Of a stretch of DNA of 64,000 bases, positions 4,706 to 54,615 are shown one piece after another. Position 1 is the first letter of the stretch, and each line of letters opens with the position of its first letter. Origin of the DNA: Solirubrobacterales bacterium. GTDB taxonomy: Bacteria; Actinomycetota; Thermoleophilia; Solirubrobacterales; 70-9. The stretch is from positions 10,542 to 74,541 of the forward strand of contig DASUTJ010000078.1 in NCBI GenBank assembly GCA_036374655.1, in the 5' to 3' direction. The notes below the pieces were generated by a model, which had not been told where the DNA came from, ran no database searches, and saw only the letters and a list, made by a program, of their open reading frames with translations. Made by a program: the position numbers and the translations under genes.

Positions 4706-6015
4706 CGTCTCTCCTCTTTAGTGCCGGGCCCGTTCCCAGGGATCAACTCCACCACAACGTCGTCCAGCCCGTCAAGCGACGCCTGTTGTGGCCCTCCAGT
4801 TGGCACTTCGCCCTGTCGGAGCCAATTCCCCCCGAGCAAAGGTGCCATTACGACAACGATGGCGATTACCCCGCACCCCGCGACAAGGAACGTCATCCGC
4901 GGGCTGACAAGGGCGGCGATCACGCCGCCGACCGCGAATCCGATCCCGGGCATCGCCGCGCCGATCGACTCGAGCACGCTCATCACCCGCGCCTGCATCG
5001 ATTCCGCGGTCAGTTCCTGAACGGCGCTGATCGCCGCTACCCACTGGACCCCGTTTCCGGCGCCGCCGAGCACCGAGACGAGACAGGCGACGGCCAGGGT
5101 GGGGGCGGCGGCGAGGCCGAGGTAGCCGGCGCCGACGGCCAGGGTGCTGAAGAAGAGGAGATTGGGCAGCGGCGCCTGGCGCAGGCGGGCGAAGAGGAGG
5201 CTGCCGAGGACCATGCCGGCGCCCCAGCTGGCGAGCATCAGGCCGTATCCGGTGTCGTTCGACCCCAGCGTCTCCTTTACGTAGATCACCTCGACGGGGA
5301 GGACCGCGGCGAAGAAGACGAAGGCCAGCCCCTGCGCGGTGAGGATGCGGCGCAGCAGGGTCTGGCTGCGGATGTAGGCGACGCCGGCGCGGACCCGCTC
5401 GCGCATCCGCCCCGGTTCCGGCTCGGCCTGGGGCATCGACCCCGCGGTGAAGAGGATCCAGGCCACCGCGTAGAAGGAGACAGCGTCCAGCAGCAGCGCC
5501 GACTGGACCCCGAGGCCGGCGACCGCGAGGCCGGCCAGCGCCGGGCCGACCGCGGCCCCGCCGGTGAAGGCGACGTTGAGCAGGGCGTTGCCTGCCCGCA
5601 GTTCGCCACTCGGCTCCAGCGCGGTGGCGACGACGGCGCGGGTCAGCGACCGGCCCGCCAGGGCGAGGGCCCCGTCGACGGTGGCCAGCGCCACCACCGC
5701 CGGCAGCCAGAAGTCGTCCACCAGCAGCGCCAGTCCGGCGAAGGCAGCCGCCTCGCAGCAGTAGATGACGGGCAGGGCGAAGCGTGGCGGTGGCCGCTCG
5801 ACCCTCGTCACCAGGATCGGGGCCAGCAGCGCAGGCAGGAAGCGGGTTCCGAGGAAGAGCGCCGTCGTCGCCAGGGCGCTCTCGGTCTGGTCGAAGACCA
5901 GCACCGAGAGGGCGATGATCCCCATCCAGTCGCCGAGCTCGTTGATCGCGTAGGACGCCGCCAGCCGCCGGAAGAGGGGCCGTCGCAGGGGGGAGGTCAA
6001 TTTGGGGCTAGTCAT
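4702..6015 (-). CDS. MFS transporter (EntS/MFS_3-like)
   Basis: 437 aa, about 12 hydrophobic segments. N-terminus FRRLAASYAINELGDWMGIIALSVLV is typical of this MFS subgroup. Its stop overlaps the SBP TTG start (TTGA). Confidence 0.85.
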   Translation of the reverse strand: MTSPKLTSPLRRPLFRRLAASYAINELGDWMGIIALSVLVFDQTESALATTALFLGTRFLPALLAPILVTRVERPPPRFALPVIYCCEAAAFAGLALLVDDFWLPAVVALATVDGALALAGRSLTRAVVATALEPSGELRAGNALLNVAFTGGAAVGPALAGLAVAGLGVQSALLLDAVSFYAVAWILFTAGSMPQAEPEPGRMRERVRAGVAYIRSQTLLRRILTAQGLAFVFFAAVLPVEVIYVKETLGSNDTGYGLMLASWGAGMVLGSLLFARLRQAPLPNLLFFSTLAVGAGYLGLAAAPTLAVACLVSVLGGAGNGVQWVAAISAVQELTAESMQARVMSVLESIGAAMPGIGFAVGGVIAALVSPRMTFLVAGCGVIAIVVVMAPLLGGNWLRQGEVPTGGPQQASLDGLDDVVVELIPGNGPGTKEERR

Positions 6016-6240
6016 GGGGGTTAGCCGTGCGTACTACCGCATTTCTGCACAACTTTTCCTGCAGATGCACAAGTTTCCGCCAAGCTGTGCTACAAAGTGA
6101 CCAGCAATTAGGAAGTTTCCACGATGCAGCGCACAACGTTGCGGGCTTCAACGACTACGAGAAGGGGCAAAGAACATGGGCTTTCGTCACTAAGCATTCC
6201 TCCGCAGACCAACTGATCGGAAGGTCTGCACCAGTCTTTT

Positions 6241-6277
6241 GAAGGGCGTCCTGGATGGGGGCGCCCTTCGTTTTTTT
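6241..6277 (+). terminator. Rho-independent terminator with no annotated upstream plus-strand gene
   Basis: Stem gaagggcg (6241-6248) pairs with cgcccttc (6262-6269) and is followed by T7 (6271-6277). Lies in a low-GC 500-nt intergenic region. Confidence 0.6.
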
Positions 6278-6523
6278 CTGAATCATTTCGATCCCCTGCA
6301 CAGGTTTTGGATCGATACTCGGATGGAATCCGTTTCTGGGCGAATTTGGCCATCTGGCTAAAGCCCTTGCCGATTCCCCATATAGACGTCTAACTTTGGA
6401 GTTCGCAAATAGCGGAACCGCCAACCCCAGCGCTCCCGCGCAGGGAAAAGCGGGGCGCCCCTGAAGAAATAGCCGGATTCCCGGCGGGGGCAAAACCCAG
6501 TCGACGACTTTCCGAGACCAGAG

Positions 6524-7921
6524 ATGGAGCAAACCCGCCCCACCCGCACCGCGATCGCCGTCATGGTCGGCGCTCTGCTGCTCACCGTCGGGGTCGCGAT
6601 CTGGGATTCGCCGCGTTCGGACTGGAACCTGACCTTCTTCGCCGTCCTGCTCGCCTTCTCGGTCTTCAGCGATCTGACCGCGGTGACCACCGAGTCGAAG
6701 CTGAAGATCTCCGGCAGCTTCCTGGCGCTGGTGATCGCGATGGTCTTCCTCGGCGGCACCCCGGCGGCGCTGATCGGCGTCGCCACGATCCTCACCGGCT
6801 GGCTGCGCTGGCGCGACGAGTGGCACTACTTGCTGGACAACGTGCTCACTTACGCGCTGTTCCCGCTGATCGGCGGCATCGTCTTCCACGAGGGCGTCAC
6901 CGCCCTGGGCCTGACCCCGGACGACCCCTGGTTCTACCTCTGCGTCTTCGGCCTCTTCCAGCTCGCCCTGGCGATCAACTTCGTGATGATCGCCAGCTAC
7001 GGCTGCTACGTCGAGCGCTCCTCCTTCTCGACCAAGCTGAAAGTCCTGCCGCCGGTCCTGCCTTCGGAGTTCGCCAGCGCGATGCTCGCCGTCGCCGTCG
7101 CCTACATCTACGCCGCGATCGGGATCGCCGCGATCGCCCTCTTCGGCGTCGTCCTGGTCACCTTCCAGTACCTGCTCGGCCAGCTGCTGCTCTCCCAGCA
7201 GCGGGCGAAAGAACTGGAGCTGCGCTCGACGCAGCTGGCCAGCTTCCAGGTCGGGATGTTGAGCGCGATGCTGCGCACCCTCGACCTGCGGGATCAGATG
7301 ACCGCCCGGCACAGCGCCGCGGTGGCTCGCTACTCGCGGGCGATCGCGCAGCGGGCGGGCTACTCGCGCCGCGAGGAGGAGCTGGTCCACATCGCCGCGC
7401 TGCTGCACGACATCGGCAAGTTCATCCTCCCCGACCGGATCCTCAAGGCCAACGTGCCGCTCACCGACGAGGACTGGATGCTGATCAAGCGCCACCCGCA
7501 GCAGGGCGCCCGCGTGGTCTCCTCGCTCGACGGCTACGGGCCGGTGGCGGACATCATCCTCGCCCACCACGAGCGGATCGACGGCAAAGGCTACCCGCGC
7601 GGTCTGGCCGGGGACGAGATCCCCGAGCTGGCGCGGATCATCTCCGTCGCCGACACCTACGACGTGATGACCGCCCGCGACTCCTACCGGACGCCGATGT
7701 CGAGCCACGACGCGATCGTCGAGCTGCGGCGGGTCGCCGGCAAACAGCTCGACGCCCGCTTCGTCGAGATCTTCATCGAGCTGCTCGAGGGCAAGGACGT
7801 CTCCTTCCAGCACGGCGAGGCGGCCGACTTCGAGAAGGAGCTGGCGCTCGAGGCGCGGATCGAGGAGACCGCCAGCCCCGGCGGCGAGACCAACCGCTTC
7901 CAGGTCGCCGGCGTCAACTAA
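6524..7921 (+). CDS. Membrane-anchored HD-GYP domain phosphodiesterase (c-di-GMP-type)
   Basis: 465 aa. N-terminal half has about 7 TM segments. C-terminal HD domain with HDIGK and HHERIDGKGYPRGL (the GYP motif). Confidence 0.85.
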   Translation: MEQTRPTRTAIAVMVGALLLTVGVAIWDSPRSDWNLTFFAVLLAFSVFSDLTAVTTESKLKISGSFLALVIAMVFLGGTPAALIGVATILTGWLRWRDEWHYLLDNVLTYALFPLIGGIVFHEGVTALGLTPDDPWFYLCVFGLFQLALAINFVMIASYGCYVERSSFSTKLKVLPPVLPSEFASAMLAVAVAYIYAAIGIAAIALFGVVLVTFQYLLGQLLLSQQRAKELELRSTQLASFQVGMLSAMLRTLDLRDQMTARHSAAVARYSRAIAQRAGYSRREEELVHIAALLHDIGKFILPDRILKANVPLTDEDWMLIKRHPQQGARVVSSLDGYGPVADIILAHHERIDGKGYPRGLAGDEIPELARIISVADTYDVMTARDSYRTPMSSHDAIVELRRVAGKQLDARFVEIFIELLEGKDVSFQHGEAADFEKELALEARIEETASPGGETNRFQVAGVN

Positions 7922-7925
7922 CAGC

Positions 7926-7953
7926 GCATCTGTTCCCGGTCGGGAACAGATGC
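7926..7953 (+). terminator. Perfect 12-bp stem/4-nt loop hairpin downstream of the HD-GYP gene
   Basis: gcatctgttccc-ggtc-gggaacagatgc. No U tract. Shares the core GTTCCCG/CGGGAAC with the hairpin at 21629-21653. Confidence 0.45.
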
Positions 7954-7971
7954 ATGTAGCGTTGCGCGCGC

Positions 7972-9006
7972 ATGCGCGCCGTCACTTTCCAGGCACCCGA
8001 GCAGGTGCGGATCGAGGAGAAGCCCGACCCCGAGCTCGTCGCCGGCGACGACGCCGTCATCCGCGTCGAGGCGAGCGGGATCTGCGGCTCGGATCTCCAC
8101 ATCTACCACGGCCGGGTGCCGGTCGAGCCCGGCTTCACGATCGGGCATGAGTTCGTCGGCACCGTCGTCGCGGCCGGAGACGACGTCGAGCGCGTCGCGG
8201 TCGGCGACCGCGTCCTCGGCACCTTCCACACGGCCTGCGCGACCTGCACTTCCTGCCTGCGCGGCGACTACCACCGCTGCCGCAACCAGCGCACCTTCGG
8301 GCACGGCTCCCATCTCGGCGACCTGCAGGGCGCCCAGGCGGAGCTGCTGCTGGTGCCGCGGGCGAACCTGACCCTGCGGCGGGTGCCGGAGGGAATGTCG
8401 GCCGACGTCGCCCTGTTCGCCGGCGACGTGATGGGAACCGGCTACCACGCCGTCGCCCATGCCGGGATGCAGTCCGGCGACACGGTCGCGGTCCTCGGCC
8501 TCGGCCCGGTCGGCCTCTGCGCGGTGCAGGCGGCCCTCGCCGGCGGCGCGGTCCAGGTCTTCGCGATCGACACGGTGGAGGAACGGCTGGCGATGGCCGA
8601 GCGCTTCGGCGCCACGCCGCTGCACCTGACCGAGGCCGACCCGAAGAAGGCCGTGCGGGCAGCGACCGGAGGACTGGGGGTCGACGTCGTCGTCGACGCG
8701 GTCGGCGATCCGGGTCCGCTGGCCCTGGCGGTCAGCCTCGCCCGCGACGCCGGCACCGTATCCGGGATCGGCGCCTACGCCGGCAAGGGCGAGGTGCCGC
8801 TCGGCCTTGCCTGGCTGAAGGGACTGCAGCTGCGGCTCGGTCTCGCCAACGTGATCGCCCACGTCGACCGCGTGCTGGCCCTCTTGGAGGCCGGCAAACT
8901 CGATCCGGCCCCGCTCGTCACCCATCACATGCCGCTCGATCAGGCCGGCGAGGCCTATCGCGTCTACGACAACCGCGAAGCGCTGAAGATCGTCCTCACG
9001 CCGTAG
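7972..9006 (+). CDS. Zinc-dependent alcohol dehydrogenase (MDR family)
   Basis: 344 aa. GICGSDLH, GHEFVG, the structural-zinc Cys cluster CATCTSCLRGDYHRC and Rossmann motif GLGPVG. Confidence 0.9.
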   Translation: MRAVTFQAPEQVRIEEKPDPELVAGDDAVIRVEASGICGSDLHIYHGRVPVEPGFTIGHEFVGTVVAAGDDVERVAVGDRVLGTFHTACATCTSCLRGDYHRCRNQRTFGHGSHLGDLQGAQAELLLVPRANLTLRRVPEGMSADVALFAGDVMGTGYHAVAHAGMQSGDTVAVLGLGPVGLCAVQAALAGGAVQVFAIDTVEERLAMAERFGATPLHLTEADPKKAVRAATGGLGVDVVVDAVGDPGPLALAVSLARDAGTVSGIGAYAGKGEVPLGLAWLKGLQLRLGLANVIAHVDRVLALLEAGKLDPAPLVTHHMPLDQAGEAYRVYDNREALKIVLTP

Positions 9007-42249: not shown

Positions 42250-43425
42250 TTAGAGCCAGCCGCGGCCGAGTCGCCGGGTGGCCGAGTCGCTGACCTCGAT
42301 CGCCCTTTCGAGAGTCTCGAAGTTGACGTTGGCGGCGATGTCGTTGGGCCAGTGGTAGCGGCCCGGCTGCTTCTGGTCGGTGCAACTGCAGAGCGCCACC
42401 GTCTCGTAGCCGGCGACCCGCGGCTCCAGCGCGTCGGTGCCGTTGTAGGTGCGCAGGTTGGGGTAGAGCCAGACGCCGAGGTCCTCGGCGACCGCTTCGA
42501 CGAACCCGAGGGCGCGGGGCGGGTAGTCGCGCATCTTCAGGAAGCCCTCGCCCTGCAGCGCCAGCAGGTGGGTGGCGCCGAGGGTCTCGAGGCAGAGGAA
42601 GAAGGTGCTCTCCCTGGGCAGCGCGTCGAAGTGGCGCTCGCCGAACGCTTTCATGCCCTCGCTGAAGCTCTCCTCCGATCCGGTCGAGAGGAGGATCACG
42701 CGGACGCCTTCGGGCGGGTCGGCGAGGAAGCGGCGAGCGAGGTCGAGCAGGGCGACGACCGCGGTGCCGTTGTCGTTGGCGGCGGGGACCGACTTGCGAG
42801 CGCCGATGTCGGCCATCGCCCCGATGCTGCCGAGGCCGAGGAAGAGGCCGATCTTGGCGAGCCAGCGCCGGCCCGTCGCCGCGCCGAGCGCCGCCAGGAC
42901 CGGGCCGCCGACCACCGGGGCCATCAGCGGCGGGCTGGTGTCGGTGCGATCGAGCATCCCGAGACGGTCGGCGAGTTCGGGCAGGGCGGGATGGAAGACG
43001 AGTCCGGAGTGGGGAGCGTCGTGGTGGGCGCTGATCACGATCGTGCGCTCGGCCTGCGGGTCGCCGAGCTGGCAGATGACGTTGTAGGTGGTGCGGGTGG
43101 GGAGGAGCCGGCGCATCCGTCGCTGGCCGGGCGGGAAGTCGTCGGCCATGCCGGCCGCCCCGAGCGCGGCCAGCGGCGCGCCGAGCAGGCGCCGGCCGCG
43201 CAGGGCCAAGACGGCGCCGAGTGACCCGAGGGCGGCGCCGATCCCCAGCGGCCACCAGTAGGTGCCGTGGGCGGGCTCGGCCTCGATCCGCGCCTCCGCT
43301 CCCAGCTCGGCGAACCGGTCGACCAGCCACTCGGCGGCCTCTCGCTCGCCGTCGGAGGCCGATGGACGCTCGATCCGCTCCAGTTCCTCGAGCCGCTCCC
43401 GCAGCCAATTCGCCTCGCTGGACAT
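42250..43425 (-). CDS. M28-family metallopeptidase-like membrane protein
   Basis: 391 aa. IVISAHHDA, NDNGTAVVALLDLAR and LLSTGSEESFSEG resemble the M28 zinc-ligand blocks. Hydrophobic insertions are present. Confidence 0.65.
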   Translation of the reverse strand: MSSEANWLRERLEELERIERPSASDGEREAAEWLVDRFAELGAEARIEAEPAHGTYWWPLGIGAALGSLGAVLALRGRRLLGAPLAALGAAGMADDFPPGQRRMRRLLPTRTTYNVICQLGDPQAERTIVISAHHDAPHSGLVFHPALPELADRLGMLDRTDTSPPLMAPVVGGPVLAALGAATGRRWLAKIGLFLGLGSIGAMADIGARKSVPAANDNGTAVVALLDLARRFLADPPEGVRVILLSTGSEESFSEGMKAFGERHFDALPRESTFFLCLETLGATHLLALQGEGFLKMRDYPPRALGFVEAVAEDLGVWLYPNLRTYNGTDALEPRVAGYETVALCSCTDQKQPGRYHWPNDIAANVNFETLERAIEVSDSATRRLGRGWL

Positions 43426-43458
43426 TGCGTCGGGAAGCTAGCCGCTTACCATGGGCAC

Positions 43459-44613
43459 ATGCTCGGCGGTGGGTCGATCACCCTCTTCCATTTCCGCGGG
43501 ATCAAGGTCACCGTCGACTGGTCCTGGTTCATCGTGCTGTTCCTGGTCATCTTCTGGATGACCGGCCGGTTCGAAGACATCCTGGGCGAATCAGGGACGA
43601 CGCCCTTCGGGCTGGCCCTGCTCAGCGCCGTCGGCTTCTTCGGCTCGATCCTCCTGCACGAGTTCGGGCACGCGATCGTGGCGATGCGCAACGGCATCGG
43701 CATCTCCAGCATCCAGCTCTGGATCTTCGGCGGGATGGCGCGGATGGACCGCGAAGCCGACTCGCCGGCGACCGAGATGAAGGTGGCGCTGGCCGGCCCG
43801 GCGGTGACGGCGGCGATCGTCGTCTTCTTCGCCGCGATCGGCATCCTCGCCGACGGCTGGTCGGGGTTCCGCGAGGCGGCGATCCTCGAAACCAACTCGG
43901 ACGTCTCCGGACTGATGGTGCTGGCCGCCTGGCTGGCGACGATCAACCTCCTGATCCTGATCTTCAACCTGCTGCCGGCCTACCCGATGGACGGCGGCCG
44001 CGTCGCCCGCGCGCTCGCCTGGTGGAAGACCGGCAACCGCAACTCGGCGACCCGCTTCGCCGCCAACCTCGGCCGCGGGTTCGGCTACCTCTTCATCGGG
44101 GTCGGCCTCGTCCTTGCTTTCAGCGGCGACCTCTTTGGTGGTGTCTGGCTCGCCCTGATAGGGATGGTGATCAACGGCTCCGCCCGCGGGGCGGCGATGC
44201 AGACGGCGATGACGAGTCGCATCGGCGACGTCCGGGTAGCCGACGTGATGGATCGCGAGCCGGTGGCCATCCCCGGCGACCTCAGTGTCGAGCGCGCTCT
44301 GGACGAGTACTTCCTCCGCTACCGCTGGCCCTGGTTCCCAGTGGTCGACGCCGCCCACCGCTTCCTCGGCCTGGTCCAGCGCGACCGCGCCGACGAGGTC
44401 CCGGAGATCTCCCGCGCCAGCTCCCACGTCTCCGACCTGGTCGACCACGACATCGGCCTCTTCGTCCGCGACGACACCCCCCTCGACTCGCTCCTCGCCA
44501 ACCAGAACCTCCGCCGCCTGGGGGCGCTGATGGCCGTGGACGCCGAAGGCCGCCTCAGCGGCGTGATCACGATCGAGCAGGTCGGCCGCGCGCTTCGGGA
44601 CGCCTCTCAGTGA
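43459..44613 (+). CDS. Site-2 protease family (M50) zinc metalloprotease with C-terminal CBS pair
   Basis: Start MLGGGSITLFHF inside track ORF 43267..44613. HEFGH, NLLPAYPMDGG and CBS-like repeats. Confidence 0.82.
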   Translation: MLGGGSITLFHFRGIKVTVDWSWFIVLFLVIFWMTGRFEDILGESGTTPFGLALLSAVGFFGSILLHEFGHAIVAMRNGIGISSIQLWIFGGMARMDREADSPATEMKVALAGPAVTAAIVVFFAAIGILADGWSGFREAAILETNSDVSGLMVLAAWLATINLLILIFNLLPAYPMDGGRVARALAWWKTGNRNSATRFAANLGRGFGYLFIGVGLVLAFSGDLFGGVWLALIGMVINGSARGAAMQTAMTSRIGDVRVADVMDREPVAIPGDLSVERALDEYFLRYRWPWFPVVDAAHRFLGLVQRDRADEVPEISRASSHVSDLVDHDIGLFVRDDTPLDSLLANQNLRRLGALMAVDAEGRLSGVITIEQVGRALRDASQ

Positions 44614-46031
44614 GGCGTCGCTCGCCTCAGGTGCTCGACGGCCTGCTGTAGGTCCGCCGCGATCTGCGCGGTCAGTTCGTCGATCCGCTCCAGCCCCGCG
44701 GCTCCCGGCGCCTGCTCGCCCGTTTGCCACGAGAGGTCGAACCGGACCTCGTCCGAGGCCAGCAGGTCGGCGTGCGGGTAGCGGCGCCACCTGGCGGTCT
44801 CGGTGCGGTCGGATTCGCCGTAGCTGGCGACGAACTCGTGAAGGTCCTCCGGGCCCAGCGGGCGTTTCTTCAGCGAAAAGCGGTTCCCCGAGCGCAGGTC
44901 GTAGACCCACAGGGCCCCGTCGCGGACCTGCTCCCGGGAGAAGAAGAGGACGTTGGCGCTGATGCCGGCCGCGTAGAACAGCCCGGCGGGCATTCGCAGC
45001 ATGGTGTGGACGTTGCAGGTCTCCAGCAGCCGGCGGCGGATCGCGGTCGCCGCGCCGCTCTCGTAGAGGACGTTGTCCGGGAGGACGACCGCCGCGCGGC
45101 CCTTGTCTTTGAGGCAGGCGACGATGTGCTGGAGGAAGTTGAGCTGCTTGTTGGCGGTTTTGACCCAGAAGTCGGGCCGGATGACGGTCAGCCCGTCCGC
45201 CGCCTCGGAGCCGCTCGCCGTCGCGTACCTGACACTGCCTTTGACGCCGAAGGGAGGATTGGTGAGGACCACGTCCACCTGCTCTGCCGGCGGGGTGGCC
45301 AGGCTGTCTTCGCAGGCGATCGGGAGATCGTCGTCGGAGTCGCCGGAGACTTCGTGGAGGTAGAGGTTCATCGCCGCCAGCCGGGCGACCTCCTGGACGA
45401 GCTCCACCCCGCGAATCGCCTTCGTCCGCAGGTGGTCCCGCGCGGCCGGCGTCAGCCGCGGGTTCGACTCGAGGATGTGCTGGTGCGCCGCCAGGAGGAA
45501 GCCGCCGGTTCCGCAGGCCGGGTCGAGGATCACCTCGCCGGGACGCGGCGCCACGCACTCGACGATGGCGTTGATAAGCGGCCGCGGCGTGAAGTACTGC
45601 CCGGCGCCGCTCTTCGTGTCGCGGGCGTTTTTCTCCAGCAGCCCCTCGTAGGCGTCGCCCTTGACGTCGGCGGAGAAGCCGGACCACTCGGTCCGGTCGA
45701 TCAGGTCGACGACCAGCAGGCGCAGCTTCGCCGGGTCGCCGATCTTGTTGCGGGCCTCGCCGAAGATCAGGCCGAGGGTCCCGCCCTCGCTGCCGAGTCC
45801 GGCCAGCGCCTCGCCGTAGGCGCGCTGCATCGCGACCGCGTCGAGGTCCGCGAAGGACCGCCACGAGAACCGCTCGGGAACCCCGCCGCCGCCGCGTTCG
45901 TCGGCGAGTTTGAGGAAGAGGAGGTAGGTGAGCTGCTCGACGTAGTCGGGGTAGGAGAGGCCGTCGTCGCGAAGCACGTTGCAGTACTGCCAGAGCTTGC
46001 GGACCAGCTCCTGGGCGCCGGGGGCACTCAT
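44607..46031 (-). CDS. hsdM: Type I restriction-modification N6-adenine DNA methyltransferase subunit
   Basis: Start MSAPGAQELVRKLWQYCNVLR at 46031 inside track ORF 44607..46622. HsdM_N-like N-terminus, motif I ILDPACGTGGF, motif IV NPPF. Confidence 0.9.
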   Translation of the reverse strand: MSAPGAQELVRKLWQYCNVLRDDGLSYPDYVEQLTYLLFLKLADERGGGGVPERFSWRSFADLDAVAMQRAYGEALAGLGSEGGTLGLIFGEARNKIGDPAKLRLLVVDLIDRTEWSGFSADVKGDAYEGLLEKNARDTKSGAGQYFTPRPLINAIVECVAPRPGEVILDPACGTGGFLLAAHQHILESNPRLTPAARDHLRTKAIRGVELVQEVARLAAMNLYLHEVSGDSDDDLPIACEDSLATPPAEQVDVVLTNPPFGVKGSVRYATASGSEAADGLTVIRPDFWVKTANKQLNFLQHIVACLKDKGRAAVVLPDNVLYESGAATAIRRRLLETCNVHTMLRMPAGLFYAAGISANVLFFSREQVRDGALWVYDLRSGNRFSLKKRPLGPEDLHEFVASYGESDRTETARWRRYPHADLLASDEVRFDLSWQTGEQAPGAAGLERIDELTAQIAADLQQAVEHLRRATPH

Positions 46032-46888
46032 GCGATGTCGGGGATGTTGCGGAAGACGGCGGTTTCGATCCAGGGACGATCCTTGAAGCTCCGGATGTAA
46101 GCGATGGCGGCCCGCGAGTATTCCTCCCCCTCGCCGGTCATCTCGATCAGTTTCGCGGCGATTTCGGTCAGGCGTTCGACCGCGCCTGCCTCTTCTCGGA
46201 GCGTCGCCGCCTCGGCTCTGTCGCCCGCCAGGACCAGCTCGTAGACCTTGGCGTAGATGGCGCGGCGACCTCTGACGAACGGATCCCAGTCGAGGTGGAG
46301 GATCTCGCGGCTGGCCTCGACCCTTTGCACCGCCGTCTCGGAGTCCTCGTAAGCGGGCGCGACCTTCGTGTAGCCGTCCATGTCGAAGATCAGGTGCGGT
46401 GGGTCTGCGGGGTTGGTCGGGTCCAGGAGCGCCGGCTTCTCCTTGTTCTCGTCGTCCGGCGAGAAGCAGCGATCGCCCTCCTCCAGCAAGGGGAAGTGAT
46501 CCGCCTTGCCGAGCGTCGCTTCCGCGTCCTGGTTGCGGCGGGGCCGGTTGGCGCGGTGGGAGCTGAGGCGGAAGTTGCGCCAGTCGAACGCCAGCCACCA
46601 ATAGCCGCCGTGGACTTTGCACTCGACGACTCGGCCTTTCGGGCGGAAATGGTCGATGTCATCGTCGGTGCCGGGGTTCTTCGACTCCGTGTACCAGCAC
46701 TTTTCGCCGTAGATGCTCTCGAAGAGGTCGCGGAAGTCGACCCAGGCCTGGCGTTTGGCTTTCATCAGTTTCTTCCGTTTTGCCGGATCCTCCTCCGCCG
46801 CCAGGTCCGCTTTGAGTTTCTCGGCGGCTTCGATCAGCCCCTGCGCCCGCGGGTCGGCGAGGATCCGGTTGAGGTTGATGAACCTCAT
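46028..46888 (-). CDS. HNH-type nuclease-like protein (TIGR02646/PtuB-like pattern)
   Basis: 286 aa. DIDHFRPKG, WRNFRLSSHRANR, KADHFPL. ATGA overlaps at both ends (with the ATPase stop and the hsdM start). Confidence 0.68.
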   Translation of the reverse strand: MRFINLNRILADPRAQGLIEAAEKLKADLAAEEDPAKRKKLMKAKRQAWVDFRDLFESIYGEKCWYTESKNPGTDDDIDHFRPKGRVVECKVHGGYWWLAFDWRNFRLSSHRANRPRRNQDAEATLGKADHFPLLEEGDRCFSPDDENKEKPALLDPTNPADPPHLIFDMDGYTKVAPAYEDSETAVQRVEASREILHLDWDPFVRGRRAIYAKVYELVLAGDRAEAATLREEAGAVERLTEIAAKLIEMTGEGEEYSRAAIAYIRSFKDRPWIETAVFRNIPDIA

Positions 46889-48525
46889 GCCGAACGCTGC
46901 TCCTCGGACCTTTCCAGGGCGATTTCCGCCGCAACCTCTTCGGCGATCTCTTCGCGACGGCGGCGGTCCTCCTCGCTGACCTGCTCGGCGTCGGTCTCGG
47001 CCTCGCCTCCGGCGGCGGCGAAGCGGGGCATGAACTGGTCGAGGAAGAGCTGGTAGAGCGGGTCGCGGTCCTGCTTCCAGAACGGGCGGGAGTTGAGCTC
47101 GTCGGACAGGGCTCGCAGCTCGGCTCGCTCCTCGGCGCCGAGGTCGTCCTTCATCGACAGCGCCCGCAGCCGCTCGAGTTCGCGCAGGGTCGCCTCGTCG
47201 AGGCCGCCGGACGGCAGGCGGAAGAGGTCGCTGGCGAGGATCGCCTGGATGCCCATCCCCCGCGGGTCGTCCAGGGGCGCGTCGACCCGGGCGGTGCCGT
47301 TCTCGGCGCGCCGGAAGATCCGCACCTCGGGACGCCGCAGCCGGGCGAAGACGAGGGGGTCGTGGGTGGCCATCACGATGTGGGAGGTCTCGGGCTCGGT
47401 GATGAAGTGGTTGAAGAAGTCCAGGTAGCGCGTGCTCCAGGCGGGGTTCAGGTGGGTGTCCGGCTCGTCGAGCAGGAACAGGGTCTCCTTGCGGGCGGTG
47501 AACTTGAGCAGCCCCAGCACCAGCAGCAGCTGCTGCTCTCCCTCCGAGAGGTCGCGGTAGGTGATCTCGCCGCCGCCGGCCGCGGGGGTCATCCGGACCC
47601 GGGTGCGGACCTCTCCCAGCAGCTTCGAGAGGTGGGTGCTCTCGAGGGCGGTGAAGAACGCGTACGGCTTGTCGTAGTGCCGGTAGACCTGCTCCAGCGC
47701 CTCGGCGCCGGGCAGGAACAGGTACAGGCTCTCGACCTGGGGATTCTGCTTGGTCAGGTCCACCTTGATGCGCCGCGGCATCCGCGAGGGCATCAGCGCG
47801 GTCTCGTAGACGCGGTCGAGGAATTCCTGCACCTCGCCGACCGCGTGCCAGAAGCGTGGATCGCCGTCGTTGCGGTTCCAGGGCGGTTTCTTCAGTGCGA
47901 AGAGGACGCTGTCGAGGCCGTCGATCTGCAGCTCCTCGCGGAGGAAGGCGCGGCCGCCGCCGTCCTCGTCCTCGGGTTCCATGAAGAAGGCGAGCAGGGC
48001 GAACTGGCCGTACAGGGTCTCCGCGTAGAACAGTCGCCGCAGCGCGTTCGGGTCGTCCACCTTGCGGCGCTGTTCCCGATCGCGGATGAGGTAGCTGTAG
48101 AAGCGCTCGCGGTGCGGCTCGTACAGGCCCGCGAGCCGGTCGGTGAGGCCGGAGTAGTAGCCGAAGACGAAGGCGGGCCGGTAGAGCGGGCCGTCCTCGT
48201 CTTCGCTGGCGAACTCGCGCTGGGAGAGGCGGCGGAAGTCCTCCTCGCCGGCCGCCCGCGCCGCCACCTTCGGTTTCGCCTCCGCGGCCGCCTCGACTTT
48301 GACGTCCAGCCCGCGGCAGCGGTAGCGCAGCCGGTACTCGAACGGGGCCGGTTGCCCGAGGTCGAGCTGGCGGAAGATCAGGGTCAGCGCCTCGAGCAGA
48401 TTGGACTTCCCGGCGCCGTTCTCGCCGACCAGGACCGTGTAGGGCGATTCCTCGTCGAAGTCGACGTGCAGCTCGTGGAGGTTCTTGAAGCTGCTGATGT
48501 AGACCTCGTCAAGTCGCATCGGCAA
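46885..48525 (-). CDS. SMC/ABC-like AAA ATPase (AAA_15/AAA_21 type, PtuA-like / restriction-system-associated)
   Basis: 546 aa. Walker A GENGAGKSN, signature LSEGEQQ, Walker B LFLLDEPDTHL, H-loop ATHDP, acidic coiled C-terminal tail. Start overlaps the hsdS 3' end. Confidence 0.75.
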   Translation of the reverse strand: MPMRLDEVYISSFKNLHELHVDFDEESPYTVLVGENGAGKSNLLEALTLIFRQLDLGQPAPFEYRLRYRCRGLDVKVEAAAEAKPKVAARAAGEEDFRRLSQREFASEDEDGPLYRPAFVFGYYSGLTDRLAGLYEPHRERFYSYLIRDREQRRKVDDPNALRRLFYAETLYGQFALLAFFMEPEDEDGGGRAFLREELQIDGLDSVLFALKKPPWNRNDGDPRFWHAVGEVQEFLDRVYETALMPSRMPRRIKVDLTKQNPQVESLYLFLPGAEALEQVYRHYDKPYAFFTALESTHLSKLLGEVRTRVRMTPAAGGGEITYRDLSEGEQQLLLVLGLLKFTARKETLFLLDEPDTHLNPAWSTRYLDFFNHFITEPETSHIVMATHDPLVFARLRRPEVRIFRRAENGTARVDAPLDDPRGMGIQAILASDLFRLPSGGLDEATLRELERLRALSMKDDLGAEERAELRALSDELNSRPFWKQDRDPLYQLFLDQFMPRFAAAGGEAETDAEQVSEEDRRRREEIAEEVAAEIALERSEEQRSA

Positions 48526-50146
48526 CCGCCCTCAGCGTCTGGTTCTCCTCCGGCTCTCCCACTGCTTCAACCGACTCGCCGAGCTCGTCGCGCAGGGCCA
48601 GGTAGAAGCGCTCGATGTCGTCGATGTCGTTGAGGTCGAATTTCGCCGCCCGGCAGAGTCCGGGAATGTCCAGCGGGCCCGATCGCCTCAGTACGCCGGC
48701 GAGCAGGGGCTCGCCTTCCCGGACCGGCTCCTGGTCTGCGCTCATCCCCGTCTCCTCCATCAGCTCGCTATCAATATCGACTCGGTCCGGCGGCGGCTCG
48801 CCCACTCGCTCGAGCAGCTCCTCGGCAGGCTCGTCTCCCTCCTCCTGGGGCACCAGCGCGCCAGAGGCCGCGGCGGCGAGGATTTCCCGCTCGACGGTCT
48901 CGATCCCCTCCAGCGAGAGCGAGATCGTCTCCCGGCGCTCCGACGACTCGGCCAGCAGGAGCTCCGCCCGCGCGGCGATCGCGGCCTGTTCCTCGAGCGG
49001 CGGCAGCGGGAACGGCATCGCCGCGAAGCGGGTGCGGGACAGGTGGGCGATGTTCGTCGACCCGCGGGAGACGCGGCGGAACTCGCCGCTGTGCAGGTAG
49101 TGGCGGAAGACCAGGAGGGCAAACCCCGGATCCACCCGGGGACCGGCGCGGAAGCGCACCAGGGTGTTCTGGAAGCAGGCCCCGGGGAGCTCGTCCCGGT
49201 AGATGGCGGGGCGGCCGACCAGCTCGGGGCTCTGCCCCTCGTTGAGCAGGATGTCGCCCGCTTTCAGGGCGTACCGCTCGTACTCCTCCGGCGTGAAGTT
49301 CATCTCCTTGACGTCGGTCAGGTCGATCCGGTCCTCGAAGACGTTCGCCACCCGCAGGTAGGGACGCATGTCAGAGCCGCTGTGGCTCTGCGGCGAGCGC
49401 TGCTTGCCGAGCCGCACGTCCGCGACCTCGTCGACGCGGGCGATCTCCCAGCCGGGAGGAAGGTCGGGGAAGATCGAGTCTCCGGTCGCCTCTCCCTCCG
49501 CGGAGGGATTCTCCGCCAGCCGGCCGCTTGCCGCCGCCGCGAGGATCTCGGAGTCCTGTTCGCGGGTGCGCGCCAACGCCGTCTCGAGTGCCTCCCGGGC
49601 GGCGCGCAGCTCGTCGAGGCGCCGCGTCGCCTCGGCGGCGATCCGCTCCTGCTCGGCAAGCGGCGGCAGCGGGAAGGGGAGGTCGGCGAGGCGCGCCGCC
49701 CCCAGGTGCTGGATCCCGATGCCGCGGGCGGTGTCGGCGAAGACACCGGAGGCCATGTGCTGGCGGAAGACGAGCAGGGCGTACCCGGGGACGACCGCGT
49801 GGGGGCGAACGCGGATGACGGTGTTCTGGAAGCAGCAGAGGGGCAGCTCCTCGCCCCAGATGGCCGGCCTGCCCACCTGGCTTTCGCTCCCCGAGGCCTC
49901 GGTGAGCACCACGTCGCCCTCGACGAGGGCGTACACCGACCGCTCCTCCGGCGTGAAGTCCATCTCCTGCACGTCGTCCAGGTCGATTCCTCCCGCGGTG
50001 ATGTTCGCCGCCCGCAGGTAGGGGGTCGGGAACCGTCCTCCGACGTGCTGGGGCGAGCGCTGGCGACCCACCCGCACCCGGCCGACGCGGGCGACGGTCG
50101 TGCTCACCCAGCCGGGCGGAAGCTGAGAGGGGCTGGGGTCGTCCAC
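48509..50146 (-). CDS. hsdS: Type I restriction-modification specificity subunit with two homologous TRDs and a C-terminal extension
   Basis: Last 545 codons of track ORF 48509..51727, GTG start VDDPSPSQLPPGW. Two TRDs each open LPPGW and end LPFPLPPL[AE]EQ..IAA. The EILAAAASG helix is repeated. Confidence 0.85.
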   Translation of the reverse strand: MDDPSPSQLPPGWVSTTVARVGRVRVGRQRSPQHVGGRFPTPYLRAANITAGGIDLDDVQEMDFTPEERSVYALVEGDVVLTEASGSESQVGRPAIWGEELPLCCFQNTVIRVRPHAVVPGYALLVFRQHMASGVFADTARGIGIQHLGAARLADLPFPLPPLAEQERIAAEATRRLDELRAAREALETALARTREQDSEILAAAASGRLAENPSAEGEATGDSIFPDLPPGWEIARVDEVADVRLGKQRSPQSHSGSDMRPYLRVANVFEDRIDLTDVKEMNFTPEEYERYALKAGDILLNEGQSPELVGRPAIYRDELPGACFQNTLVRFRAGPRVDPGFALLVFRHYLHSGEFRRVSRGSTNIAHLSRTRFAAMPFPLPPLEEQAAIAARAELLLAESSERRETISLSLEGIETVEREILAAAASGALVPQEEGDEPAEELLERVGEPPPDRVDIDSELMEETGMSADQEPVREGEPLLAGVLRRSGPLDIPGLCRAAKFDLNDIDDIERFYLALRDELGESVEAVGEPEENQTLRAVADAT

Positions 50147-50184
50147 GGTCGGGATACAAGCTACTTCCCGCGGATGTTCCCGAA

Positions 50185-51855
50185 CTACGCGACCGGGCGG
50201 TGCCGCTCGATGATGCGGCCGAAGTCGGTACCGGCTGGGAGGGTGCCGAAGGCCTGGCCCCAGTCGCCCGAGAGGCGGGAGGCGCAGAAGGCGTCGGCGA
50301 CCGCTTCGTCGCCGTAGCGGACGAGCAGGGATCCTTGTAGGGCGAGGGCCATCTTCTCGACCACGCGGCGGGCGCGGGCCTCGATCGTCTCCAGGTCTCC
50401 CGGTAGTTCGTCGCGCAGCTCGCTGGCGAAGGCCTGCAGGCGCGGCTCGCTGACGGCGCCCTCCTCGACCTCGGCGAAGTAGGCCTCCAGCGAGGCCGGG
50501 CTCTTGACCATCGCCCGCAGGACGTCGAGACACTGGACGTTGCCAGAGCCCTCCCAGATCGAGTTGAGCGGGCTCTCGCGGAAGAGCCGCGGCATCCCGG
50601 ACTCCTCGACGTAACCGTTGCCGCCGAGGCACTCGAGCGCCTCGCCGGCGTGCATCACGGCCCGCTTGCAGATCCAGTACTTGAGGACCGCGTTGGCAAC
50701 CCGCTTCAGCTGCGCTGCCTCTTCGTCGCCGGCGATCGCTTCGTCGTAGGCGCGGGCCAGGCGCAGGGCGCCGATCGTCGCCGCCTCCGACTCGACCGCG
50801 AGGTCGGCGAGGACGTTGCGCATCAGCGGCTGCTCGACCAGCTCGCGGCCGAAGACCGAGCGGTGGGTGGTGTGGTGGATCGCCTGCGCGACCCCGGCCC
50901 GCATCCCGGTCGCGCCGCCGAGCACGCAGTCGAGACGGGTGTGGTTGACCATCTCGATGATCGTCCGCACCCCGGCGCCCTCCTCGCCGACCAGCCAGGC
51001 CGAGGCGGCGTCGAACTCGATCTCGCTTGAGGCGTTGGAGCGGTTGCCGAGCTTGTCCTTGAAGCGCTGCAGGCGGAAGCGATTGCGCTCGCCGTCGGGC
51101 GTCCAGCGCGGGAAGAGGAAGCAGGAGATGCCGCCGTCGGCCTGGGCGAGGACGAGAAAGGCGTCGCACTGGGGCGCCGACATGAACCACTTGTGGCCGG
51201 TCAGCTCGTACTCGGCGCCGGGGCCGCCGCCGTTGACGGGACGGGCGACGGTGGTGTTGGCGCGGACGTCGGTCCCGCCCTGCTTCTCGGTCATCCCCAT
51301 CCCAGCGAGGGCGCCCACCTTCTCCGGGGCGGGCGCGTTCCGCGGGTCGTAGCTGGAGGAGAGGAAGCGCGGCTCCCACTCCGCCGCCAGCTCGGGCTGC
51401 GTGCGGAGGGCTGGGATAACCGAGTAGGTCATCGAGATCGGGCAGCCGATCCCCGCCTCGGCCTGCGACATGCACATGAAGGCGGCGCCGCGGGCGACGT
51501 GGGCGCCCGGCCGCGGGTCCTTCCACGGGGAGGAGTGCAGCTCGAAGCCGACCCCGACGCCCATCAGCTCGTGCCAGGCGGGATGGAACTCGGGGATGTC
51601 GACCCGGTTGCCGTAACGGTCGTGGGTCTTCAGCTTCGGCCCGTTCTCGTTGGCGAGCCGACCGAGCTCCTGCGCCGCCTCGCTGCCGGCGTACTCGCCG
51701 GCAGCGGCGATCCGCTCGCGATCCCACTCGGCTCCCTCGCGCTTCACCGCCTCGACCAACACGGTGTCGGCCTCGAAGACGTTGTAGTCGACCAGCGGCG
51801 GCGGTTGGTTGACCACCGCGTGGTTGCCGAAGGCCTTTCGCTCGACGGTTGCCAT
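50185..51855 (-). CDS. AidB-like acyl-CoA dehydrogenase
   Basis: Start MATVERKAFGNH at 51855 inside track ORF 50185..51999. 556 aa. MTEKQGGTDV, LGNRSNASSEIEF and YVEESGMPRLFRESPLNSIWEGSGNV are typical of the AidB subgroup. Confidence 0.85.
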   Translation of the reverse strand: MATVERKAFGNHAVVNQPPPLVDYNVFEADTVLVEAVKREGAEWDRERIAAAGEYAGSEAAQELGRLANENGPKLKTHDRYGNRVDIPEFHPAWHELMGVGVGFELHSSPWKDPRPGAHVARGAAFMCMSQAEAGIGCPISMTYSVIPALRTQPELAAEWEPRFLSSSYDPRNAPAPEKVGALAGMGMTEKQGGTDVRANTTVARPVNGGGPGAEYELTGHKWFMSAPQCDAFLVLAQADGGISCFLFPRWTPDGERNRFRLQRFKDKLGNRSNASSEIEFDAASAWLVGEEGAGVRTIIEMVNHTRLDCVLGGATGMRAGVAQAIHHTTHRSVFGRELVEQPLMRNVLADLAVESEAATIGALRLARAYDEAIAGDEEAAQLKRVANAVLKYWICKRAVMHAGEALECLGGNGYVEESGMPRLFRESPLNSIWEGSGNVQCLDVLRAMVKSPASLEAYFAEVEEGAVSEPRLQAFASELRDELPGDLETIEARARRVVEKMALALQGSLLVRYGDEAVADAFCASRLSGDWGQAFGTLPAGTDFGRIIERHRPVA

Positions 51856-54219: not shown

Positions 54220-54615
54220 TCAGCCTCCAGCCGGGTAGTACTGGCGGCCTTTCTTCTTCACCCGTCCCTCTTTCTCGAGGTCGCCGAGGACCCGGTAGAG
54301 GTAGTTGGGCTTGATTTTCATGTTTTTGGCGACGTCCGAGGCGCTGATCCCGGGCTGCCCCTCGATCAATTTCACCGCCTGGTCGGCGCGGGTCCCGCCG
54401 CGGCGTTTACGGCGACGGCGCGGACCGCTGCTGGTAGTGGCGCTGGCAGTGGCTTTTTTGGCGCTGCCGCGGGGGCGGCCGGGACCACGGCGAGTGGCTT
54501 TGCCGCCGAGGGCAGCGAGAGCCTGCTCGGCCTGCTTGAGCTGACTCTCGAGCTCGCGGACGGTTCTCTCGAGAGCATCGCGAGCCACGTCCAAATGGTT
54601 GGTGCTGGGGGGCAT
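54220..54615 (-). CDS. Small basic DNA-binding-like protein (coiled coil + AT-hook-like GRP motif + C-terminal wHTH)
   Basis: 131 aa. RRGPGRPRGSAKK, RRRRKRRGG, then ISASDVAKNMKIKPNYLYRVLGDLEKEGRVKKKG. Confidence 0.55.
   Translation of the reverse strand: MPPSTNHLDVARDALERTVRELESQLKQAEQALAALGGKATRRGPGRPRGSAKKATASATTSSGPRRRRKRRGGTRADQAVKLIEGQPGISASDVAKNMKIKPNYLYRVLGDLEKEGRVKKKGRQYYPAGG

Follow-up and report, generated by a model that had tools for sequence, protein, structure and literature searches.

The ATPase–nuclease pair PtuAB, which constitutes stand-alone Septu, has been co-opted as a conserved effector by a different sensor in retrons (PMC12819146), and the co-localization of Septu with methylases is already on record, 0.7% of the Septu systems being embedded in Hma and functioning there independently (bioRxiv 10.1101/2024.01.29.577857). 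On the side of DNA modification, MADS from Pseudomonas aeruginosa has been described as a methylation-gated defence without HsdR, with a type I-like M, an HsdS-like subunit and a bipartite motif (bioRxiv 10.1101/2023.03.30.534895). The locus analyzed here combines components of both kinds: in a 64,000-nucleotide (nt) stretch of DNA from a Solirubrobacterales bacterium (assembly GCA_036374655.1, contig DASUTJ010000078.1, positions 10,542 to 74,541 of the forward strand; hereafter the window), the genes of a type I specificity subunit (hsdS) and of a type I DNA methyltransferase (hsdM) enclose those of a PtuA-like ATPase and a PtuB-like HNH protein. The comparison of this cassette with about 100 related loci supports the view that it represents a four-gene system, hsdS–ptuA-like–ptuB-like–hsdM, which is conserved and horizontally mobile and works as one unit without the need for HsdR. 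In the searchable literature, neither a description nor a test of an obligate M/S–PtuAB module or of its HsdR-less clade was found, one relevant ABC ATPase classification paper (PMC7544218) lying outside the coverage.

The four open reading frames (ORFs) of the cassette were re-read in the sequence at the coordinates given by the initial annotation, a model's reading of the letters of the window, and they are chained by overlaps of 11, 4 and 4 nt along hsdS, ATPase, HNH and hsdM. The features of the locus, including the two target recognition domains (TRDs) of HsdS, are the following:

48509..50146, minus strand: hsdS, type I specificity subunit, 545 aa; Methylase_S in two stretches, PADLOC Specificity_I with E = 9e-93
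49622..50131, minus strand: HsdS TRD1, residues ~6–175; 54% identical to TRD2
48953..49462, minus strand: HsdS TRD2, residues ~229–398, paralogue of TRD1; blastp of TRD1 against TRD2, E = 1e-56
48509..48519, minus strand: overlap of 11 nt between the hsdS stop and the ATPase start, read in the sequence
46885..48525, minus strand: PtuA-like ABC ATPase, 546 aa from TTG 48525 or 544 aa from ATG 48519
46885..46888, minus strand: ATGA shared by the stop of the ATPase gene and the start of the HNH gene, read in the sequence
46028..46888, minus strand: PtuB-like HNH nuclease (predicted), 286 aa; PADLOC PtuB PDLC00343, AlphaFold2 (AF2) fold
46028..46031, minus strand: ATGA shared by the stop of the HNH gene and the start of hsdM, read in the sequence
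44607..46031, minus strand: hsdM, type I N6-adenine DNA methyltransferase, 474 aa; N6_Mtase and HsdM_N, PADLOC MTase_I

The hsdS gene starts with a GTG at 50146, 38 nt past the stop of an aidB-like gene (50185), and its stop codon occupies 48511–48509, so that it overlaps the ATPase gene by 11 nt from ATG 48519, which is the start used in the annotation of this metagenome-assembled genome (MAG), or by 17 nt from TTG 48525. Both lengths, as well as the two ATGA junctions, had been proposed beforehand and were read directly. At the opposite end, the convergent M50 protease gene (43267–44613) shares 7 nt with the 3′ end of hsdM.

The modification components are readily recognized. HsdM matches Pfam N6_Mtase (5.9e-68) and HsdM_N, together with PADLOC MTase_I PDLC03026 (E = 5e-160), and it carries an S-adenosylmethionine motif and NPPF, the expected DPACGTGGF and NPPF being both present in the sequence; the NPP[FYW] motif is kept in 78 out of 78 HsdM proteins of the family, those of all HsdR-less loci included. 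Likewise, the two TRDs ascribed to HsdS are borne out by the two stretches of Methylase_S, by the PADLOC specificity model and by the delimitation of TRD1 and TRD2.

The identity of the enclosed pair is less immediate. The ATPase matches Pfam AAA_21 and AAA_15 and contains all the motifs initially read in it (GENGAGKSN, LSEGEQQ, LFLLDEPD and ATHDP), and 22 homologues all share the residues of its Walker A, signature, Walker B and H-loop motifs. It matches PADLOC PtuA PDLC00293 over its full length (E = 2e-167) and the PADLOC AriA models only partially (E = 4e-25), and PrrC is not among the 25 of 145 PADLOC matches listed for it. For its AF2 model, which is of modest confidence (pLDDT 72), the best Foldseek matches are PtuA chains from retron I-A and Septu (TM scores of 0.3–0.45), with PARIS AriA after them. 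The similarity to the solved PtuA by phmmer reaches only E = 2e-10 and is located in the Walker regions, and the NCBIfam PtuA model NF041760 (retron Ec78) gives 51.8 bits against a cut-off of 500. Membership of TIGR04435 (restriction system-associated AAA ATPase) was considered and rejected, since the window protein, with 109.9 bits over its C-terminal half only, and five relatives from other ATPase clusters, with 116–149 bits, all stay far from the cut-off of 300, which points to a sister family. The 286-aa HNH protein has no match in a Pfam scan, but it shows the predicted pattern as DIDH...N...H, and the motifs CWYxE...DxDH...N..R..H..N are invariant in 40 homologues; PADLOC PtuB PDLC00343 covers it in full length (E = 4.5e-70). 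For its AF2 model (pLDDT 89.7), the top 11 PDB fold matches are all PtuB chains from complexes of Septu and retron I-A; the first ten reach a probability of 0.99 or more and the eleventh one of 0.63, with TM scores of 0.36–0.57. No match to the solved PtuB was found by phmmer, and TIGR02646, to which the initial annotation had compared the protein, is reached with 29.4 bits for a cut-off of 52.15. Since the fold comparison settles the kinship with PtuA and PtuB, the pair is, according to these models, a divergent Septu-type PtuA/PtuB subfamily. The Septu-type identities first put forward are therefore backed by the PADLOC models and the folds, but they remain below the cut-offs of NCBIfam PtuA, TIGR02646 and TIGR04435; among the profile families suggested at that time as a check, HsdM_N, N6_Mtase, Methylase_S and AAA_15/AAA_21 were all matched, and PADLOC supports PtuA and PtuB.

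The distribution of the cassette was studied by scanning one genome per GTDB species with an alignment of the ATPase, which retrieved at least 529 relatives; the loci analyzed are the best 80 of these and 24 from other look-ups (about 100 loci), with genes called by tblastn of the four window proteins and ORF-based recovery of divergent hsdS, and with ATPase clusters obtained by the unweighted pair group method with arithmetic mean (UPGMA) on identities. In 79 of the 80 species-level loci, the ATPase/HNH pair lies on the same strand as hsdM, hsdS or both. The order S-A-B (S for hsdS, A for the ATPase gene and B for the HNH gene) is invariant in all of the surveyed loci, with hsdM (M) either upstream, as M-S-A-B, or downstream, as S-A-B-M, the arrangement of the window. 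Overlaps recur as well: S and A overlap by 4, 11 or 14 nt in most related loci of both architectures, A and B by 4 or 1 nt in most loci, and B and hsdM by 4 nt in most members of the window's clade. Because the same order and overlaps recur in about 100 loci of other organisms, the arrangement is far beyond chance.

The single exception to this linkage (L067, 10001–12453, from Tengunoibacter tsumagoiensis) is the only surveyed A-B pair without hsdM or hsdS; its neighbors code for two kinases, one with an FHA domain and one with TPR, and for HD-CE and CHAT proteins, a setting that resembles another kind of conflict system. A different kind of departure is found in a Planctomycetota MAG (L027, 8377–13192), where the cassette is decayed, with HsdS, ATPase and HsdM fragmented and the HNH gene gone.

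Several observations indicate that the four genes diverge and persist together. The pairwise identities of the ATPase correlate with those of HsdM (r = 0.68) and of the HNH protein (r = 0.76). Starting from HsdM instead of the ATPase, 81 of the 120 closest homologues (61–78% identical, besides the protein of the window itself) lie on contigs of 6 kb or more, and at least 41 of these 81 share their contig with a top-120 match of the ATPase or the HNH protein; four of the unmatched ones were looked up, and 4/4 were again S-A-B-M without HsdR. The catalytic motifs (NPP[FYW], the ABC motifs and the HNH core) are kept in all intact members. Both the methyltransferase core and the ATPase–nuclease pair of this co-inherited operon with coupled translation are apparently active. 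Linkage, co-divergence and conserved motifs argue against independent systems.

The hosts of the module extend over Actinobacteria, Proteobacteria, Acidobacteriota, Verrucomicrobiota, Planctomycetota, Chloroflexota, Bacteroidota, Firmicutes, Cyanobacteria, the Candidate Phyla Radiation (CPR) and methanogenic archaea, and it is also found on plasmids (including those of Roseomonas and Pantoea), on an integrative and conjugative element (ICE) of P. aeruginosa, beside Wadjet, and on an integrase island of E. coli MB06233. In all, the loci compared represent more than 10 phyla as well as archaea, and among them are copies on plasmids, ICEs and prophages. Distant members were detected on eight viral contigs of IMG/VR, and no homologue in the INPHARED phage collection. 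Some of these settings deserve a closer description. The E. coli MB06233 copy (L089, NZ_CM129883.1, 3568451–3580541) is a natural HsdR-less M-S-A-B cassette, and its island is bounded by a tyrosine integrase gene, contains two hypothetical genes and a Fic/DOC gene, and adjoins ygbA and the hyp operon. In two Pseudomonas loci (L006 and L018, 14083–21611), the cassette resides on a conjugative element with VirB/Trb type IV secretion genes upstream and directly adjoins a Wadjet-like JetABCD operon (DUF2397, DUF2398, SbcC-like and DUF3323), and a PhdYeFM antitoxin-like gene extends over the start of hsdS. Small genes recur just 5′ of hsdS in the HsdR-less clade (L088, 9772–10254; L098, 7856–8269; L002, L102 and L104, ~4800–8100); in Roseomonas and Sediminicoccus, the gene of a MarR-family regulator overlaps the start of hsdS, and a divergent TacA1/GNAT-acetyltransferase toxin–antitoxin pair is found in Bradyrhizobium, A. 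rhizogenes and Methylorubrum. These small genes may be regulators or co-travelling addiction modules. Large Peptidase_S8 (subtilase) genes occur near the cassette in unrelated hosts (L011, 16452–18998; L013, 3840–6395; L063, 2509–4974).

The presence of HsdR (gene R) divides the relatives in a different way. HsdR was sought in flanks of up to 10 kb with type IB-like queries and Pfam checks of large ORFs. Among some 60 more distant loci (ATPase 37–46% identical), 29 have a large gene immediately 5′ of the cassette on the same strand; six out of nine large cassette-adjacent ORFs examined with Pfam are HsdR (ResIII and EcoEI_R_C, some with HSDR_N), of the type IB kind, and the D...EAK nuclease motif of the relatives' HsdR is intact. 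About one in two of the more distant relatives carries HsdR, in the architectures R-M-S-A-B or R-S-A-B-M, and loci with and without it are interleaved in most ATPase clusters. Two clusters are wholly HsdR-less. One consists of five actinomycete loci with M-S-A-B; the other, to which the window belongs, has 20 non-redundant loci, S-A-B-M without exception, with hosts among Actinobacteria, Alpha-, Beta- and Gammaproteobacteria, Verrucomicrobiota, Acidobacteriota and Planctomycetota. Eight more HsdR-less loci of this clade come from a Roseomonas plasmid, Sediminicoccus, Paractinoplanes, a JGI contig, a Solirubrobacterales-like contig, A. rhizogenes, B. ontarionense and Methylorubrum. In total, no HsdR was found in ~28 loci of the window's clade within ~6–10 kb on each side, where contig ends allow, and the surroundings of these loci vary (housekeeping genes, ICE, plasmid, integrase islands). 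Nor is there a cryptic HsdR, according to Pfam, among 17 large ORFs near HsdR-less cassettes, which encode TraG, TonB receptors, subtilases, carboxylases, a NERD helicase, an MZB-domain protein and similar products. A 1086-aa AAA_34/Helicase_C_4 protein of Bradyrhizobium, encoded beside a Toprim primase, belongs to the mobile element and was discarded as an HsdR candidate. In a Bryobacterales MAG (L020, 1087–8019), three large same-strand genes precede the cassette and encode a DExH-box helicase-like protein without Pfam match, a protein with MZB (MrfA Zn-binding), and one with NERD and an SLFN-like helicase; they probably represent another defence system in the same island, and none is HsdR. 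The survey of hsdS-ATPase-HNH-hsdM loci with and without hsdR, which had been recommended with the initial annotation, shows accordingly that both kinds exist and that the window's clade consists exclusively of the second. M, S, A and B form the constant core and HsdR is optional; the core is kept without HsdR down to ~58% ATPase identity and across phyla and replicon types.

The window agrees with this picture. All its large ORFs belong to families other than HsdR (MMPL, Lon and DnaX, among others), and tblastn of six Pfam-verified HsdR proteins against its 64 kb returned only noise (E > 0.3), so that the earlier statement that no HsdR exists in the module or its flanks holds for the whole window.

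A second peculiarity of the HsdR-less clade concerns HsdS. TRD1 and TRD2 of the window protein are 54% identical over 167 aa and hence paralogues, which is visible in hsdS as a nucleotide direct repeat (49237–49363 versus 49897–50023; 127 nt, 76% identity), the only notable repeat found. This symmetry of TRD1 and TRD2 is present in 16 out of 17 HsdS proteins of the clade (39–64% identity), and one single TRD family, 46–78% identical to the window TRDs, is shared across all phyla of the clade and is also found in several HsdR-less loci of other ATPase clusters. By contrast, the HsdS proteins of loci with HsdR have ordinary, dissimilar TRDs (22–36%). At equal ATPase identity, HsdS identity amounts to 44–50% in HsdR-less pairs versus 32–38% in HsdR pairs, the HsdR sample being small. 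Because the TRDs are both paralogous and conserved, the HsdS target in the HsdR-less clade is probably a fixed, palindromic bipartite site. A specificity that is conserved and probably palindromic is the reverse of what type I systems usually show, and each of the models considered below explains it incompletely. The ~95-aa C-terminal tail of the window HsdS, beyond the two TRDs, was considered as a docking domain for PtuA and discarded, since it is detectably conserved only within the window's clade and the HsdS of HsdR-bearing relatives is equally long (510–600 aa in all relatives); S subunits of such length are in general characteristic of type IB.

Concerning the mechanism, the reading tentatively preferred here, plausible and still short of probable, is that the M2S1 methyltransferase core licenses PtuAB as an effector on unmethylated DNA. 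M2S1 would methylate a probably symmetric bipartite site on the host DNA, and at unmethylated sites of incoming DNA it would license an associated PtuA oligomer, whose ATPase cycle would then free or activate the PtuB HNH nuclease; the target of PtuB could be DNA, with a restriction-like outcome, or tRNA, as in other PtuAB pairs, with growth arrest, and in HsdR-bearing relatives the same sensor would drive PtuAB as a second effector. This licensing is favored because all HsdR-less loci keep the methyltransferase motif and because MADS offers a precedent. Several points weigh against it. The mechanism rests on computation, and the contact between M2S1 and PtuAB is putative. The characterized PtuAB pairs cut tRNA-Tyr, or are controlled by ATP or msDNA (multicopy single-stranded DNA) and not by the methylation state (PMC11555353, PMC13096335, PMC12819146). 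The relatives with an intact HsdR (D...EAK, ResIII and EcoEI_R_C) indicate that PtuAB is not a simple HsdR replacement, conserved paralogous TRDs across phyla are unlike the diversifying specificities of a restriction arms race, and the Tengunoibacter pair stands without M or S. Moreover, the search for HsdR in the organism of the window covered the 64 kb of the window, and its source is an incomplete Solirubrobacterales MAG in which a distant hsdR could lie elsewhere.

A more far-reaching version, rather unlikely in our estimate, is that PtuAB serves as an alternative "R subunit", with an ABC-ATPase oligomer and the HNH protein docked on M2S1 and restricting unmethylated DNA at or from the fixed symmetric site. 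If true, this would represent a new class of type I-like restriction–modification (R-M) enzyme, in which the superfamily 2 (SF2) helicase–nuclease HsdR is replaced, and in some relatives the function would be duplicated. The initial annotation had already envisaged a composite system of this kind, with PtuAB supplying the activity of HsdR; its functional unit is supported by the data above, but the replacement of HsdR is conjectural and is weakened by the relatives that retain it intact, because in these loci PtuAB is an extra effector and not a substitute.

The two readings offered at that time, composite or independent systems, were moreover incomplete, as they did not consider a guardian role like that of PrrC or PARIS, which is a serious rival, even if we hold it to be unlikely. 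M2S1 would here keep PtuAB latent, and an anti-restriction factor acting on the methyltransferase core, such as a DNA mimic of the Ocr/ArdA type or an Stp-like peptide, would trigger abortive infection through a nuclease acting on tRNA or DNA; in HsdR-less loci, M2S1 would survive as sensor or decoy and as "antitoxin". The setting is PrrC-like, with an ABC-type ATPase–nuclease beside hsdS in a type I operon, the best fold matches of the ATPase include PARIS AriA, and PrrC and PARIS have been reviewed as R-M guardians (PMC12707154). Among the distant relatives, about one in two is a full R-M-S locus with intact HsdR, to which PtuAB is an add-on; M and S are never lost and R is often lost, and other PtuAB pairs are toxic effectors that are restrained by a partner and cut tRNA-Tyr. 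The more conserved HsdS of HsdR-less loci, with its "frozen" symmetric TRDs, would also fit, because under this model sequence specificity no longer matters there. Nevertheless, a pure decoy would not need the methyltransferase motif, which has been kept in every HsdR-less locus over deep divergence, and the last place in the operon, occupied by hsdM in the window's clade, is an odd one for an antitoxin. There is no homology to PrrC or AriB, the effector being an HNH protein, and the binding of an anti-restriction protein to this M2S1 is hypothetical.

The second of the initial readings, two independent systems, is improbable. It would see an ordinary Septu inside a type I operon devoid of hsdR, with M and S as an orphan methylase and only the transcript in common. 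Type I loci tolerate the loss of hsdR, which is common among them, PADLOC would label the pair "Septu", and the Tengunoibacter locus has A and B without M or S. Defence genes, including Septu, are also known to be embedded in Hma, BREX, DISARM and type I R-M operons (bioRxiv 10.1101/2024.01.29.577857). This reading is opposed, however, by the 79/80 loci linked to M or S, by the S-A-B order and the S/A overlap that hold in both architectures, and by the co-divergence of A, B and M, with all of the sampled close HsdM relatives lying in the same cassette. Without HsdR, the four genes remain intact with their motifs down to ~58% ATPase identity, and the sole decayed copy, that of the Planctomycetota MAG, has lost the integrity of A, B and M together.

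Split type I loci with a shared HsdR exist in some bacteria, the source MAG is incomplete with most of its genome unseen, and module relatives use a type IB HsdR, but a cognate HsdR encoded elsewhere and docking in trans on M2S1, which would make the locus a split type I R-M system with an accessory pair, is very improbable in view of the 0 of ~28 clade loci with HsdR in the available flanks, among them a 64-kb plasmid, ICEs, islands and unrelated phyla, and of the fact that a mobile cassette cannot count on a matching HsdR in every new host.

The genes that flank the cassette in the window are housekeeping ones (Peptidase_M50 with CBS, AidB_N/acyl-CoA dehydrogenase, isocitrate and malate dehydrogenases, SdhA/SdhB, an M28 peptidase and Lon), and Pfam matches and coordinates agree with what had been reported of them, including the 7-nt overlap with the M50 gene and the 38-nt gap to the aidB-like gene. 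Signs of a recent insertion, sought as a GC anomaly or flanking direct repeats, were not found at the cassette, and the sole tRNA gene of the window is located ~24.5 kb from the closest cassette gene. A scan of 44000–50800 gave no promoter-like site and terminator-like sites not exceeding chance, such a scan being uninformative for a high-GC actinobacterium. Between the malate dehydrogenase and fatty-acid hydroxylase genes, a 131-aa ORF rich in basic residues and without Pfam match is present (54220–54615, minus strand).

The implications reach beyond this single locus. Besides stand-alone Septu and retron I-A, the cassette would be a third wiring of the Septu effector, in which a type I methyltransferase core is served or guarded by an effector other than HsdR. 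For annotation, thousands of loci now recorded as "orphan type I M/S" and "Septu" or "AAA family ATPase/hypothetical protein" would become one system, and the counts of orphan methylases as well as the censuses of defence systems would be corrected. The module also allows an experiment separating methylation-gated licensing from guardian sensing of anti-restriction, and tractable natural copies exist in the E. coli MB06233 island, the P. aeruginosa ICE and the Roseomonas and Pantoea plasmids.

Compared with the described systems, the cassette shares with Septu (E. coli complex 8EE7/8EEA) the pair of ABC ATPase and HNH protein, the translational coupling of their genes, the PADLOC models and the predicted folds, but its sequences are very divergent, with NCBIfam scores below the cut-offs, and the pair almost always follows hsdS in an hsdM/hsdS operon. 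A self-sufficient two-gene Septu is therefore not what the survey depicts, as 79/80 loci have hsdS, hsdM or both in the same operon. The Septu pairs embedded in Hma (the "guilt-by-embedding" of Payne et al.) are alike in that a defence pair is nested among the genes of a modification system, and differ in that the subfamily described here is essentially always linked to M/S and co-evolving with them, and in that the host system has lost its nuclease–motor subunit. In the type IB R-M family (EcoAI/EcoEI), the likeness lies in the bona fide type I HsdM and HsdS and in the HsdR of the relatives (ResIII and EcoEI_R_C), which comes first in R-M-S; the window's clade, by contrast, lacks HsdR, has the ATPase and HNH genes always after hsdS, with hsdM moved to the 3′ end of the operon, and possesses paralogous, conserved TRDs. 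A complete type I R-M system was rejected for this locus, HsdR being missing in the window and in the flanks of ~28 clade loci.

PrrC-EcoprrI, an anticodon nuclease of a type IC hsd locus, has likewise an ABC-type ATPase and a nuclease encoded beside hsdS/hsdM, the same location as in the cassette, and PARIS (AriA/AriB) also combines an ABC-type ATPase, AriA, a strong fold match of the window ATPase, with a nuclease. PrrC itself is controlled by R-M proteins, and an equivalent control of the cassette PtuAB is hypothetical. Both systems differ in their nucleases, a C-terminal anticodon nuclease (ACNase) domain in PrrC and a Toprim in AriB instead of HNH, and the cassette has two separate proteins, is IB-like and not IC, and persists without HsdR in whole clades. 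Membership of PARIS was rejected, since the partner is a PtuB-fold HNH protein with no Toprim and the AriA models match only in part. MADS resembles the cassette in its HsdR-less, methylation-based distinction of self and non-self, its type I-like M, its HsdS-like subunit and its AAA_15-type ATPase; it comprises eight genes with MAD6-8 as mandatory core, whereas the cassette has four genes and no MAD6-8, and a PtuB-type HNH protein was not found among the MADS components in the text consulted. Membership of MADS was also discarded on NCBIfam scores (MAD2, 120.6 versus 720 bits; MAD3, 43.1 versus 420; MAD5, 51.5 versus 400). Retron type I-A (Ec78/Eco7, Ec83) provides the best structural matches for both proteins, and in it PtuAB is a modular effector under a separate sensor or regulator of the same operon. 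The sensor of the cassette would be the type I methyltransferase core and not a reverse transcriptase with msDNA, as neither a reverse transcriptase nor a non-coding RNA is present in it. By this analogy, the cassette may work like a Septu effector co-opted, as in retron I-A, this time by a type IB-like methyltransferase.

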